A program made the position numbers and the translations under genes. From a virus (taxonomy: Duplodnaviria > Heunggongvirae > Uroviricota > Caudoviricetes), in IMG/VR virus record IMGVR_UViG_2698536552_000010: a stretch of DNA of 6,365 bases, one strand, 5' to 3'. The notes beneath the pieces were generated by a model that worked only from the letters and a program-made list of their open reading frames with translations, made no database searches and was not told the origin of the DNA. How positions within the stretch are numbered: position 1 is the first letter of the stretch; each line of letters starts with the position of its first letter. This document shows positions 2,002 to 6,365 of this stretch, one piece after another.

Positions 2002-2026
2002 CCTTGTTACCTAGTTACCTTTTTTA
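1991..2026. repeat. Left copy of a direct repeat flanking the second N run (shares cggaaaaatcaacc + tagttacctttttta with 2295-2323, plus an extra 8 bp)
   Basis: Read directly; the extra 8 bp (TAACAAGG on the minus strand) creates the TAA stop after ...KKVTR. Confidence 0.85.
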
Positions 2027-3125
2027 NNNNNNNNNNNNNNNNNNNNNNNNNNNNNNNNNNNNNNNNNNNNNNNNNNNNNNNNNNNNNNNNNNNNNNNNNN
2101 NNNNNNNNNNNNNNNNNNNNNNNNNNNNNNNNNNNNNNNNNNNNNNNNNNNNNNNNNNNNNNNNNNNNNNNNNNNNNNNNNNNNNNNNNNNNNNNNNNNN
2201 NNNNNNNNNNNNNNNNNNNNNNNNNNNNNNNNNNNNNNNNNNNNNNNNNNNNNNNNNNNNNNNNNNNNNNNNNNNNNNNNNNNNNNNNNNNNNNCGGAAA
2301 AATCAACCTAGTTACCTTTTTTAACTGCCGCTCAGCCCATGCTTCTTCAATATCAAACCGAGTCACCAGCGCATCATAGAATTTCTTAACTGTTTTTTCC
2401 CATGACGCGCGTGTTATCTGGTTTGTCACCTCGCATATAGCATTAAATGCCTCCGTTGATGGTAGTCTTTCATAGCCACGACCACCACAACGCTGGCAGT
2501 CTCTGATAACAGGCATACCACGTTTTACCGACTCTTCACGATGAATGGCGACACCACGCCCACGGCAATCCTTACAGGCGGTGGAAACCTCACCCTTTCC
2601 GCCACACTCCGGACAGGCAACTTTTACCACCTCCCTGACTTTTTTCCATTCTTCCCAGTAAGACGGATACACACCTTTCGTACACTTTGCCCATACCGGC
2701 GGCTTACCATCCGGATACTGGATCTTGTTTGTAAAAACCTCGCTTTCAATAAATTTTTTTCCGTGACAGCAGGGGCACTGTTTTTTGCTCGCCGCGCTAC
2801 GGGCATAATCTTCAAACGCATACGAAGCCATAATACGCATCACTGCCGGTTTTATTTCTGCCGGGAGTTTTCTTAACGCCGCCACGCGATCACACCGACT
2901 GAGTGCATATTCTGTCAGCAATTCTGTTGCCCGCTCTCTGTCATTCATACTAATGCCCATTTTCCCAAGGAACGCAGAAACCCCCATCTCAGCCCGATTC
3001 TGTGTCATGCCCTGCGCGGCCATCACATCAGTGATACTCAGCGCATCTTTCGACGTTGAGGCCGATGCATCAGTCAGGCCGGGGGATTTTGGGGAGTAGT
3101 ATTTCGGTAAATCTTCCAGTTTCAT
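2007..3125 (-). CDS. quuQ: Late antiterminator Q (Qin quuQ-like), with four DnaJ-like Cys-rich repeats; 3' end crosses the N run, about 273 aa if it ends at ...KKVTR
   Basis: Position directly downstream of rusA with ATGA start/stop overlap and upstream of PR'/tR'; motifs CPCCHG, CPECGGKG, CKDCRGRG, CQRCGGRG; N-terminus MKLEDLPKYYSPKSP resembles Qin QuuQ as I recall it. Only 2295-3125 is directly read. Confidence 0.8.
   Translation of the reverse strand: MKLEDLPKYYSPKSPGLTDASASTSKDALSITDVMAAQGMTQNRAEMGVSAFLGKMGISMNDRERATELLTEYALSRCDRVAALRKLPAEIKPAVMRIMASYAFEDYARSAASKKQCPCCHGKKFIESEVFTNKIQYPDGKPPVWAKCTKGVYPSYWEEWKKVREVVKVACPECGGKGEVSTACKDCRGRGVAIHREESVKRGMPVIRDCQRCGGRGYERLPSTEAFNAICEVTNQITRASWEKTVKKFYDALVTRFDIEEAWAERQLKKVTRLIFPXXXXXXXXXXXXXXXXXXXXXXXXXXXXXXXXXXXXXXXXXXXXXXXXXXXXXXXXXXXXXXXXXXXXXXXXXXXXXXXXXXXXXXXXXXKKVTR
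2027..2294. other. Run of 268 N (gap or masked sequence) inside or at the 3' end of the Q gene
   Basis: N run read directly; the two flanking repeat copies are offset by 297 bp, keeping the Q frame. Confidence 0.9.
2295..2323. repeat. Right copy of the direct repeat flanking the second N run
   Basis: cggaaaaatcaacctagttacctttttta matches 1991-2026 except for the 8-bp indel. Confidence 0.85.
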
Positions 3126-4636: not shown

Positions 4637-4918
4637 TTATCCAGTGACGGTAGTCGAGGCTAAGGGCTTTTTTAACCTCGCATCCGCGCCTGCGGTAACA
4701 CTGAATGAGCCATTCGGCCTGTTCTTCAGTGCATGGGGGATGCTGGTACCAATCAGATTTAAATGCGTGAGAGCGCCGCCCGTGCCTGCTGGCAAAGACG
4801 GCTGAATTATCAGAATTGTGTAGTCTGGAAGGCAGTGGCTGACAATAGCGCCATTCTCAACGCGCACAGTATAGAGGCCATCTTCACTAAAAATTTCACG
4901 TAATTCTTCGATTTTCAT
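4637..4918 (-). CDS. rem: rem-like small prophage protein, 93 aa from ATG at 4918
   Basis: SD GGAAGGA 8 nt upstream of ATG; lies between hokD and ydfU as rem does in Qin; protein identity is from context, not recalled sequence. Confidence 0.45.
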   Translation of the reverse strand: MKIEELREIFSEDGLYTVRVENGAIVSHCLPDYTILIIQPSLPAGTGGALTHLNLIGTSIPHALKNRPNGSFSVTAGADARLKKPLASTTVTG

Positions 4919-5000
4919 CAACAGAATCCTTCCAGATAAATAGCACTCCCCTGTTCGGGGTCCATCCCTCTTCTCCCTGCGCGCTACTTAAGTATTTTTG

Positions 5001-5070: not shown

Positions 5071-5138
5071 AAGTGTGGGTGCATTGAGGATGCCTGCCCC
5101 ATCAGAGGTGGCGAGGGATTTCTCCCCCGCCTGGTCTC

Positions 5139-5294
5139 TTACTCCTCAGGTTCGTAAGCTGTGAAGACAGCGACCTCCGTCTGGCCGGTTCGAATTCGTA
5201 CCTCGCAGAGGTCTTTCCTCGTTACCAGTGCCGTCACTATGACGGTTAAACAGATGACGATCAGGGCGATTAACATCGCCTTTTGCTGCTTCAT
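5139..5294 (-). CDS. hokD: Hok-family type I toxin HokD (RelF), 51 aa
   Basis: Translation MKQQKAMLIALIVICLTVIVTALVTRKDLCEVRIRTGQTEVAVFTAYEPEE matches the HokD sequence as I recall it; SD AAGGAG 9 nt upstream of the internal ATG at 5294. Confidence 0.9.
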   Translation of the reverse strand: MKQQKAMLIALIVICLTVIVTALVTRKDLCEVRIRTGQTEVAVFTAYEPEE

Positions 5295-5505
5295 AGCCTG
5301 CTTCTCCTTGCCTTTCGGCACGTAAGAGGCTAACCTAGATTTGCCGTTCATAGATTGAGCCTCAGATTAATGTTAAGCGTCTTGCCGGACGCGTAATGTT
5401 AACTGGGGCTTTTCTCTATCTGCCTTTTGGTGTTCATGCCTGAGACAGATAGCCTCAAGCACCCGCTGCAATTCTACTTAACTCTCCTTTTCCCGCAAAC
5501 CGTTT

Positions 5506-5589
5506 TTATCCCCAGCGGCAAATCGAATACACCACCAGCGCCACCGCCATCGCAATTCCTACCGTTGTTAATGCTTCAGGCCAGGTCAT
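5506..5589 (-). CDS. Candidate 27-aa hydrophobic peptide ([27 protein letters not shown]), start overlapping the upstream stop (ATGA)
   Basis: Found by hand translation; single predicted transmembrane-like segment; below the ORF track length cut-off; no dedicated SD. Confidence 0.3.
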
Positions 5590-5930
5590 CGTAAAATATC
5601 CTCCACGCTTATCAGTCCGTTCCGCTCCAGATAACTCATCGCCTTATCCGGTAATTTGCAGTCTGGCTTCGCTTTCCTCAGTTGCCAGGTTAACTGCTTT
5701 ACCAGCATGGTTAACTCATCGACCAGACGCTGATATCCCACTGGTTTGTATTCATGCAATTTACCGGCTGGCTCTGCTGCCAGCGATACCAGTGCGATTT
5801 CCAGAACAGCAATATCCATCTTATATGTGCGGATGATGTCATGGTCGATTGTGCCCGGTATGCACAGTCTCTGTGCTTCAATAGTCTCCTCTGCGTGAGC
5901 TATTAACTGCTCTCTGGTAAAAGTCGTCAT
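5586..5930 (-). CDS. Hypothetical protein, 114 aa, paralogous at its N-terminus to the 55-aa ORF upstream
   Basis: ATG at 5930 overlaps the upstream stop (ATGA); shares MTT(I/F)T(K/R)E and IAL(A/V)SL(E/A)AEP motifs with 5927-6094; family not recognised. Confidence 0.6.
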
Positions 5931-6094
5931 GCCGTAGCCCCTTCTTGATATTTTTCAAACCAGAACACAACCGGCTCTGCTTCCAGCGATGCCAGCGCAA
6001 TCCGTGCCAGTTCCATTTGTTCACCACGGGTAAGCCCGTTTTCAAGCGGGTTTTTAATGAACAATTCAATACGTTCTTTGGTAATAGTGGTCAT
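5927..6094 (-). CDS. Hypothetical protein, 55 aa ([55 protein letters not shown])
   Basis: Found by hand translation; SD GGAG (TAAGGAGtaacacATG) 8 nt upstream of ATG at 6094, immediately after the upstream TAA. Confidence 0.55.
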
Positions 6095-6104
6095 GTGTTA
6101 CTCC

Positions 6105-6335
6105 TTAACCCGCAGTGCTTTCAACTGATGAGGGGAACAAAATCTTTTCATCAAACCCTGCATTCATATCATGAACAGCAACACACCAATCCATCGACGA
6201 ACGATTATCAAGAGCCTCCATGATTTCATCCATGCGGCGTAGGTCATACAGGTAAATGCTTTTATCGCCAATGGTGTAAAAGCCAATTTTTTTCGGTGAT
6301 GGATGAGGTGTACTGGCAATAGCGGACACTACCAT
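6105..6335 (-). CDS. Hypothetical protein, at least 76 aa; frame stays open to the window edge, so the gene may start beyond 6365
   Basis: Minus-strand ORF ending TAA at 6105; no stop in frame between 6336 and 6365 and no SD before ATG 6335. Confidence 0.45.
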   Translation of the reverse strand: MVVSAIASTPHPSPKKIGFYTIGDKSIYLYDLRRMDEIMEALDNRSSMDWCVAVHDMNAGFDEKILFPSSVESTAG

Positions 6336-6365
6336 TTGTTCTTTTTTTAAGCAGCCATCTGATGA

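Follow-up and report, generated by a model that had tools for sequence, protein, structure and literature searches.

The window, by which we mean the whole 6,365-nt stretch of DNA analysed here (IMG/VR record IMGVR_UViG_2698536552_000010), ends in four small minus-strand open reading frames (ORFs) of 76, 55, 114 and 27 aa at positions 5506 to 6365. Their junctions read TAA-GGAG-N8-ATG, ATGA and ATGA, confirming the tight stop/start packing described in a first-pass annotation of the same sequence. The array lies between the replication genes on one side and hok/sok, ydfU (DUF968), rusA and Q on the other.

The first of the four had been taken for an intact gene running out of the window. Its ATG at 6335 in fact falls inside an insertion sequence: positions 6304..6365 (minus strand) are identical at 62/62 bases to the right terminus of an E. 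coli copy of IS600 (IS3 family), and contain the end of the orfB transposase (last codons ..HQMAA, stop TAA at 6349-6347), both of which place the element in IS600. RefSeq labels the matching element 'IS3-like element IS600 family transposase', and at the matching locus (L046) the blastn alignment to the IS600 copy covers 1364-2640, with the right end of the element at ~2627 as judged from the window junction. The 76-aa ORF (6335..6105, minus strand) is a chimera of 11 IS-derived codons and the remnant of a phage gene with an 87-aa product of unknown function (PHROG 1714); of this gene the 3' 65 codons and the stop remain at 6105..6303 (minus strand) and the first 22 codons are missing. The 87-aa gene was found in 978 of 5,426 complete E. 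coli genomes and was missing from 23 of 80 IMG/VR loci carrying the 114-aa gene; a comparison of its product with PDB sequences gave no match below E=0.4. Upstream prophage DNA is lost beyond the IS600 junction. The Shigella sonnei copy is an IS600-truncated remnant; the insertion and an associated deletion would have separated the array from its early promoter, and for this reason it is probably decaying.

The second and third genes, ORF55 (5927..6094, minus strand) and ORF114 (5586..5930, minus strand), had been noted to share the N-terminal motifs MTTxTxE and IALxSLxAEP, and this relationship is borne out by BLASTP (E=1e-5, 33% identity over 54 residues). Both proteins begin with an Eaa-type head, a module of ~40 residues starting MTTITKE and ending in a ten-residue hinge, which is characteristic of the phage proteins grouped in PHROGs 60, 660, 3323 and 5117. 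In the DNA, the hinge sequence forms a direct repeat of 29 nt, with 86% identity between its copy in ORF114 (5770..5798, minus strand) and its copy in ORF55 (5973..6001, minus strand), the latter a putative recombination joint. The same head occurs on DUF551 proteins (for example P0242), on dATP/dGTP-pyrophosphohydrolases (formerly DUF550) and on "Eaa" proteins, while ORF55 and ORF114 have no DUF551, PF04447 or other body domain after the hinge. The head is predicted as a confident helical hairpin (pLDDT 84-90) and, going by this model, may have a function at the protein level beyond that of a recombination joint. Our literature search on the function of DUF550, DUF551 and Eaa returned nothing relevant.

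ORF55 is a body-less chimera of two ordinary phage genes. Residues 1-37, comprising the head and the hinge, are identical to the start of gp026 of Salmonella phage VSe13, a protein with a head, PF04447 and DUF551, and the hinge then runs straight into a 14-residue tail. With its 14-15 residues this C-terminal tail is that of an HNH endonuclease gene, the 15-residue stretch being identical to the end of the HNH protein gp11 of phage ArgO145. Profile matches are to PHROG 3323 (E=1e-19), PHROG 60 (E=4e-18) and PHROG 660, and UniRef names the protein 'Eaa protein'. The gene upstream of ORF114 varies among the 80 IMG/VR loci: 57 have ORF55, 19 an HNH endonuclease gene and 4 a variant of 60-70% identity. 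Of 75 such loci, 24 have no hok. In a further protein (P0151), the head of ORF55 is fused to the tail of ORF114, the two being joined at the hinge motif.

ORF114 combines a variant head, again predicted to fold as a helical hairpin, with the hinge, a brief linker and a conserved tail at its C-terminus, in which ELTMLVKQL precedes a 29-residue stretch. It matches PHROG 660 at E=8e-43 and PHROG 60 at E=1.5e-7, and homologues of 101-140 aa keep this architecture while differing in their heads. The AlphaFold2 model is all helical (pLDDT 71.5); a Foldseek search of PDB and BFVD with it returned only generic helical hairpins, all at E>=0.15, and no PDB sequence matched below E=0.4. The tail is common to N15 gp45, ST64B Sb32, H19J orf688 and Rac. 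N15 gp45 (139 aa, function unknown) has an ORF114-like head, hinge and tail, the tail being 71% identical over residues 70-114, but its central part is different and longer, and downstream of it lies an unrelated ORF of 18 aa, gp45.1, in place of the 27-aa gene of the window. Sb32, annotated as ead/Ea22-like, shares its tail (ELTMWVKRL..GLISVEDVLR) with ORF114 at 52.6% over residues 58-114. We rejected true membership of ORF114 in the Ead/Ea22 family, as the Pfam Ead_Ea22 domain covers only residues 2-159 of Sb32, upstream of the common segment, and the Pfam model (PF13935) matched neither ORF114 nor ORF55. ORF114 was found at 630 places in 563 of the 5,426 complete E. coli genomes, and the copies sampled were all at least 99% identical.

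The last gene, ORF27 (5506..5589, minus strand), encodes a predicted single-pass membrane mini-protein of 27 aa, MTWPEA followed by L or F and 20 further residues. The hydrophobic character attributed to it earlier holds (Kyte-Doolittle mean of 2.16 over 19 residues, one predicted membrane helix). Its supposed position directly upstream of the hok coding sequence does not, since the hok leader with mok and sok (~5289-5470) intervenes. ORF27 is far more widespread than the rest of the array, occurring at 1,829 places in 1,324 of the 5,426 complete E. coli genomes (~24%) with up to five copies per genome, and a genome-collection scan recovered it outside Escherichia and Shigella only in two tiny, probably contaminant contigs. 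Three unrelated types of gene precede it, namely genes ending in VEDILR, DUF551 genes ending in PPQEVNQ and genes of the 933W L0139 type; on its 3' side lie either hok/sok or GC-rich hairpins, in all combinations with the upstream types. Small membrane proteins such as KdpF and AcrZ resemble ORF27 in size and in having a single hydrophobic helix, but ORF27 is phage-borne and limited to Escherichia and Shigella, and its weak profile matches to KdpF (E=0.12) and DUF883_C (E=0.029) were rejected as chance, with no significant homology to such proteins. Its 90% clusters had suggested that ORF27 might be the C-terminal anchor of DUF551 proteins, an identity that we likewise rejected, as the DUF551 proteins end at PPQEVNQ.

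Beyond ORF27 lies a complete hok/mok/sok type I toxin-antitoxin locus (5139..5470, minus strand), with hok at 5294..5139, mok at 5351..5139 and the hok leader and sok region extending to ~5464-5470, followed by a terminator-like hairpin at 5070-5053, all on the minus strand. Hok matches Pfam HOK_GEF (PF01848) at E=3e-23 and is overlapped by mok, and the Rfam sok model (RF01794) scores 112 bits at 5289-5464 against a gathering score of 59. The locus is an independent module, with a boundary immediately after the ORF27 stop in all contexts. The comparison with K-12 Qin made in the first-pass annotation is correct in that relB-relE lies directly upstream of hokD there and in that the window's products, still uncharacterised, have no sequence or family similarity to RelB or RelE. 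The proposed equivalence of position is only rough: the match with Qin stops at 5308, which is 14 nt upstream of hokD, and K-12 therefore lacks the mok/sok leader that the window keeps. In K-12, then, relBE replaced the hok leader, whereas the window retains the full hok/mok/sok locus and its genes, unlike relBE, have no pairwise obligate linkage.

Comparison with other phages divides the region into blocks of different affinity. Positions 5981-6299 are 95.6% identical to the P22-like phage VSe13, 5505-5971 are 99.6% identical to the Stx phage ArgO145, and 5400-5589 are 91% identical to 933W and Sakai VT2. These blocks occupy different places in different genomes: the early-left region in ArgO145 and VSe13, the nin-equivalent region in two loci (L001 and L002) and, in 933W, a site at the far end of the record. 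The boundaries with VSe13 (5981) and ArgO145 (5971) fall at the ORF55 hinge, and in general the mosaic block boundaries coincide with head and tail segments, which recur on otherwise unrelated DUF551, dATP/dGTP pyrophosphohydrolase, HNH and Ead_Ea22-containing Sb32 proteins. Heads, hinges and tails may therefore be seen as candidate joints for homologous or homeologous recombination; the Red system of lambda recombines diverged sequences efficiently and adds to mosaicism (PMC2327257). The tails also carry a ribosome-binding site and the ATGA overlap, an arrangement that would couple translation to the next gene.

The closest known counterparts of such an array are the 'ea' genes that lambdoid and P22-like phages carry (the exo-xis region of lambda with ea22, the P22 eaA-type 'Eaa' genes, DUF551, PF04447/DUF550), which are likewise small, non-essential, overlapping and mosaic and are transcribed with the early operons. 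The same blocks occur in the early-left region of ArgO145 and VSe13, and the ORF55 head is identical to that of a PF04447+DUF551 protein. Two differences are that ORF55 and ORF114 have no DUF551, PF04447 or Ead_Ea22 bodies, and that the array in the window occupies a nin-equivalent position between the replication genes and Q, whereas the lambda 'ea' genes lie between exo and xis.

We favour, with a probability of about 0.78, the explanation that the region forms the distal end of an 'ea-type' accessory array belonging to a cryptic lambda-like prophage of Shigella sonnei, and that its four small genes are independently shuffled accessory genes rather than a coherent toxin-antitoxin or defence module. 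The array would be a string of independently recombining modules (the IS600 end, the 87-aa gene remnant, ORF55, ORF114 and ORF27), closed by ORF27 as its last cistron. In an intact prophage, transcription starting at the early promoter upon induction would read on through these genes, a pattern that we infer from finding no internal promoters or terminators; the promoter scan was a crude consensus search that returned zero sigma-70-like sites on the coding strand between 5100 and 6365 and also missed the hok promoter. Ea22 and the exo-xis genes belong to the early genes and, without being essential, modulate the choice between lysis and lysogeny (PMC7093339, PMC10834534), and by analogy the array may contribute a non-essential modulation of phage development or host physiology. 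A role of single genes in defence or exclusion may exist, as a candidate only, and some functional linkage of ORF27 with ORF114 or with hok/sok is possible, given its constant adjacency to the former (79/79 loci) and its position before ~82% of prophage hok/sok loci.

Several other readings were weighed against this one. In the first, ORF27 is a real inner-membrane protein of Escherichia and Shigella prophages with an activity of its own, a tentative suggestion with the odds clearly against it. Such a protein might modulate Hok or another membrane target, aid superinfection exclusion or tune lysis timing, and its activity would explain both the retention of ORF27 as terminal cistron of many different arrays and its position directly upstream of most prophage hok/sok loci.

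A functional two-gene unit of ORF114 and ORF27, in which a soluble helical protein and its membrane mini-protein partner would move together, is unlikely. The constant adjacency of the two holds with or without hok or ORF55, the ArgO145 block consists precisely of ORF114, ORF27 and the tail of the gene before them, genes with the diverged tails VEDVLR and AEDVLR also precede ORF27, and the ATGA overlap would couple translation of the two genes. Yet ORF27 was located at 1,829 places, about three times the 630 of ORF114, and also follows DUF551-type and L0139-type genes, and the same-tail proteins N15 gp45, ST64B Sb32 and H19J orf688 precede other genes. Moreover, with the sampled ORF114 copies nearly identical, the linkage among them says more about recent shared ancestry than about selection.

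That ORF27 is untranslated, its 84 nt serving as a non-coding boundary element (a recombination linker or a transcription signal), we consider quite improbable, in spite of its lack of annotation in the records inspected, the existence of null alleles (5 loci with a 1-nt deletion, plus a single nonsense and a single frameshift allele) and an estimated dN/dS of only ~0.4. Among 52 alleles, the distinct changes in the ORF27 frame comprise 24 synonymous, 31 non-synonymous and 2 stops, as against 13/37/6 and 14/42/0 in the other two frames; the synonymous share (24/57, 24.6% expected; binomial P=0.0028) is in excess in this frame only, the others being at expectation, and so is the share of third-position changes (P=0.0098). 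Homology blocks stop exactly at the ATG and the stop codon, GGAGG stands 7-10 nt upstream in all three unrelated upstream contexts, an in-frame 6-nt duplication is tolerated, and the 91%-identical 933W copy, the most diverged allele, is intact and keeps the hydrophobic core. A frame-specific synonymous excess, intactness in diverged copies and a ribosome-binding site are together what is expected of a protein-coding gene, and from these features ORF27 is probably a real one. The earlier annotation had named absence of the 27-aa ORF from homologous loci as a finding that would count against its proposal; on this point we confirm that the ORF is conserved.

Cooperation of ORF27 with hok/sok, either as a second membrane peptide modulating Hok or as a shield from upstream read-through, is highly doubtful. 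ORF27 stands immediately upstream in ~97 of 118 (~82%) prophage hok/sok loci of this type, ORF27 and the hok leader have diverged as one piece (91%) in 933W and Sakai next to a different upstream gene, and both products are small, single-pass membrane peptides. Against this, ~45% of ORF27 copies are followed by a hairpin instead of hok, the boundary of the module lies precisely in the interval from the ORF27 stop to the proposed hok promoter, and K-12 hokD and other hok loci have no ORF27. The adjacent locus is a bona fide member of the hok/sok group (hokD, hokW-sokW), while ORF27 has no similarity to Hok; neither an antisense RNA nor a long folded leader was detected for it by Rfam and a crude promoter scan, which also yielded no promoter of its own, and unlike hok it appears to be translationally coupled to the preceding gene. 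Cloned hokW-sokW behaved as a toxin-antitoxin pair, and no upstream ORF is mentioned in the passages searched (PMC8621323).

Exceedingly improbable is an undescribed operon of the toxin-antitoxin, abortive-infection or superinfection-exclusion kind made up of all four ORFs, as the first-pass annotation proposed, in which ORF55 and ORF114 would be small and large partners and ORF27 a membrane effector: tight packing with ATGA overlaps, a place beside a type I toxin corresponding to that of relBE in K-12, and products of which none has a known function speak for it, and against it stand a first ORF that is an IS600-truncated fragment, a second that is a chimera, replacement of ORF55 by the HNH gene in 19/80 loci, the P0151 fusion, unequal frequencies of the components, the varied contexts of ORF27 and, within the reach of the crude scan that missed the hok promoter too, no promoter of its own. 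The relationship between ORF55 and ORF114 thus stands as a common N-terminal module and falls as a partnership. The genes assort independently: the whole cassette is present in only 315 of the 5,426 complete E. coli genomes, well below the counts for ORF114, the 87-aa gene and ORF27, which, with the HNH replacement and the fusion, is not the behaviour of the obligate pair of a type II toxin-antitoxin system. When the four products were scanned against Pfam, NCBIfam and PADLOC at E up to 1, no toxin, antitoxin or defence match emerged, with zero matches in PADLOC-DB 2.0, which covers systems described up to 2023, and no profile, PDB or fold match to the known toxin (RelE/ParE, MazF, HicA, VapC and others) or antitoxin (RHH, HTH, Phd) superfamilies was seen. 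ATGA overlaps, in turn, are the norm for every neighbouring gene in such arrays. That annotation had itself listed homology to ordinary phage proteins as evidence against a system, and such homology, to proteins of the early or nin region, is clear here. On the sequence evidence the one-operon reading is largely refuted by the assortment data, and the candidate new toxin-antitoxin or defence system does not hold up.

The shuffled accessory array that we favour provides a worked example of how lambdoid accessory genes may be assembled from interchangeable heads, hinges and tails, with the 29-nt hinge repeat as the likely joint and body-less chimeras such as ORF55 left behind. It also advises caution, as tight packing and paralogy of small prophage ORFs need not mean a "system". 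The mosaic array is otherwise ordinary, and its only mildly new item is the mostly unannotated ORF27, a conserved gene that annotation pipelines skip although about a quarter of complete E. coli genomes have it, and whose product is a predicted membrane mini-protein of 27 aa. A literature search for the peptide returned nothing relevant, and the gene is unannotated in the records inspected (RefSeq L001, 933W, ArgO145 and Stx2 phage I). A few other records name it 'prophage protein', and the 90% clusters in which ORF27 is joined to DUF551 are artefacts, produced by entries with partial read-through, for example P0267.

All four minus-strand ORFs of the first-pass annotation were found in 5506-6365 with the junctions listed there: the first ORF (76 aa, 6335..6105), ORF55 (55 aa, 6094..5927), ORF114 (114 aa, 5930..5586) and ORF27 (27 aa, 5589..5506) are joined, in order, by TAA-GGAG-ATG, ATGA and ATGA. 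They are followed on that strand by a complete hok/mok/sok locus (5139-5470; hok with a Pfam HOK_GEF match at E = 3e-23, sok with an Rfam match at 5289-5464, 112 bits), a terminator hairpin (5070-5053) and, further on, a DUF968/YdfU gene, rusA and a Q antiterminator gene (2007-3125, two Antiterm matches and a DnaJ-type zinc-finger match). The region corresponds to the nin part of a lambda-like prophage. Its Q antiterminator is unusually long (372 aa), with the sRNA STnc100 (517-706, 132 bits) and tRNA-Arg(tct) (1403-1479), both on the minus strand, downstream of it.

The four ORFs had been read as an undescribed toxin-antitoxin or defence-type operon beside hokD, an observation that was partly misread, because the first ORF, although present as a reading frame, is the IS600-truncated remnant of a phage gene and not a genuine intact gene. 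The match between near-identical E. coli loci and the window extends no further than 6303, while 6304-6365 are identical to the right end of IS600 (62/62 bases), and the IS600 transposase terminates in the HQMAA* read at the window edge. The first ORF takes its ATG from within IS600; the native gene encodes 87 aa (MATLTKKERAWLNELQEVLDRC followed by PSPKK...; PHROG 1714, function unknown), and its first 22 codons are gone in the window. The exact 76-aa chimera corresponds to the Shigella sonnei "prophage protein" Q3Z0Y9_SHISS and occurs on 832 contigs, which makes S. sonnei the most likely source of the window. At an S. sonnei-type locus matching the window (L046, 1-2640), the DNA past IS600 is not homologous to the intact prophage and the 87-aa gene lacks its 5' part. 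The array has therefore been severed from the early promoter and the genes upstream, through what looks like a deletion or rearrangement associated with IS600 rather than a simple insertion.

The suspected paralogy of ORF55 and ORF114 held at the level of a shared N-terminal head (~40 residues) and the IALxSLxAEP hinge that follows it. The two proteins share 33% identity over 54 residues (BLASTP, E = 1e-5), their hinge DNA forms a 29-nt direct repeat (5770-5798 and 5973-6001, 86% identity), and both match PHROGs 60, 660, 3323 and 5117, none with a known function. The head recurs on otherwise unrelated proteins, many of them entered in databases as "Eaa protein"; a DUF551 protein (P0242) carries a head variant plus the hinge. 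In Salmonella phage VSe13, the first 37 residues of gp026 (L005:1928-2614) are identical to those of ORF55 and precede PF04447 (dATP/dGTP pyrophosphohydrolase, formerly DUF550) and then DUF551, a portable head joined to an enzyme domain. Past the hinge ORF55 has only 15 residues, the same ones that form the C-terminal tail of gp11, the HNH endonuclease of ArgO145, and is therefore a head with a foreign tail and no body. In ORF114 a variant head and the hinge are followed by a short linker and a 45-residue tail that also terminates N15 gp45, ST64B Sb32, H19J orf688 and one Rac protein. Membership of ORF114 in the Ead_Ea22 family was ruled out, since the Pfam domain of Sb32 (residues 2-159) lies before the common tail. 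Aligned full-length relatives carry at least three different heads on one hinge-linker-tail, and P0151 (101 aa, S. sonnei and E. coli), in which the ORF55 head is fused in frame to the ORF114 linker and tail at the IALASL-AAEP hinge, is the expected product of recombination between the two hinge repeats.

At the sequence level, the region is a mosaic, assembled from independent blocks. The 87-aa gene with the ORF55 head (5981-6299) is 95.6% identical to a P22-like Salmonella phage; the HNH tail with ORF114 and ORF27 (5505-5971) is 99.6% identical to Stx phage ArgO145, where this block sits in the early-left ead/Ea22 region; and ORF27 with the hok leader (5400-5589) is 91% identical to 933W and Sakai VT2, which have a different gene, L0139, upstream of ORF27. 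Across 5,426 complete E. coli genomes, the whole cassette was present in 315, ORF114 in 563, the 87-aa gene body in 978 and ORF27 in 1,324 (1,829 places). Among 80 IMG/VR loci with ORF114, the gene upstream of it was ORF55 in 57, an HNH gene in 19 and, in 4, a variant with 60-70% identity; 23 of these loci had no 87-aa gene, and 24 of 75 had no hok. An obligate multi-gene system does not behave in this way, and with the first ORF cut by an IS as well, the reading as an undescribed four-gene system is not supported: this is a decaying mosaic array of accessory genes, of an ordinary kind. The heads, hinges and tails recurring at block boundaries would fit recombination at short diverged homologies, which is efficient with lambda Red (PMC2327257).

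Searches of the four products against Pfam, NCBIfam, PADLOC and PDB sequences gave no match. As a consensus scan found no sigma-70-like promoter or terminator on the coding strand of 5100-6365, transcription from the early promoter of an intact prophage would be expected to run through the array genes upon induction, as with the exo-xis and ea genes, which are early and non-essential and modulate the lysis-lysogeny decision (PMC7093339, PMC10834534).

ORF27 probably is a true gene that also forms a separate module. The peptide is nearly invariant among 121 IMG/VR copies, and homology to other contexts ends exactly at its ATG and directly past its stop codon. Three unrelated gene ends occur upstream, a ..VEDILR type, a DUF551 type (ending in WMPLPEPPQEVNQ) and the 933W L0139 type, and all of them place GGAGG 7-10 nt ahead of the ATG. 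On the other side ORF27 is followed by the hok/sok module or by one of several GC-rich hairpins, with any upstream class found next to any downstream class. Across 52 distinct alleles, changes in the ORF27 frame were 24 synonymous, 31 non-synonymous and 2 stops, versus 13/37/6 and 14/42/0 in the other two frames; the synonymous excess was significant against the 24.6% synonymous sites expected (binomial P = 0.0028), and 28 of 57 changes fell in third codon positions (P = 0.0098). The product is hydrophobic, as had been proposed, with a Kyte-Doolittle mean of 2.16 over a 19-residue stretch, from which one membrane helix is predicted. Null alleles occur in a few copies (null and variant alleles: L002, L013, L030, L066, L084, L031, L082 and L060). 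Five loci, including phage vB_EcoS-689R5, have a 1-nt deletion just past ATGAC, and in that phage a frame-shifted 36-aa ORF is annotated instead; L031 carries a nonsense change (TGG to TGA), L082 a frameshift and L060 an in-frame 6-nt duplication. When one genome per species was scanned with a degenerate pattern, ORF27 turned up only in E. coli, S. flexneri, one unnamed Escherichia species and two tiny contigs, assigned to Xanthomonas pisi (L265, 431 nt) and Acinetobacter idrijaensis (L267, 369 nt), most likely E. coli or Shigella contamination of those assemblies. ORF27 is unlisted in the annotated records inspected (RefSeq L001, 933W, ArgO145 and Stx2 phage I) and named "prophage protein" in a few others, and the peptide string did not occur in the literature searched. 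It probably represents a conserved, largely unannotated gene for a 27-aa predicted membrane mini-protein, and is the one item here meriting a small follow-up. Phage N15 gene 45.1 (L086:1635-1691), an annotated 18-aa ORF with an ATGA overlap with the gp45 stop, occupies the same position as ORF27, but its sequence is unrelated and not hydrophobic.

A functional link between ORF27 and hok is a minority possibility. ORF27 lies directly upstream in ~97 of 118 prophage hok/sok loci collected via the hok promoter region, and ~45% of ORF27 copies are without hok. The module border sits between the ORF27 stop and a candidate promoter (TTGCGG, ~17-nt spacer, TAGAAT); this promoter is a proposal only, read from the sequence, since the consensus scan did not pick it up. 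A cloned hokW-sokW locus acted as a toxin-antitoxin pair, and no upstream ORF is mentioned in the passages searched (PMC8621323). The position given for relBE beside hokD in Qin was seen in the K-12 sequence (Q, ydfU, rem, hokD, relE, relB). Homology of the window to Qin (L210:7120-7289) stops at the beginning of relE, 14 nt upstream of hokD; K-12 hokD has therefore lost the mok/sok leader, whereas the window retains the complete locus. Between hok and ydfU, a minus-strand 94-aa ORF (4637-4921) without a Pfam match aligns over approximately its first 23 codons to K-12 Qin at the rem position, the remainder being unrelated.
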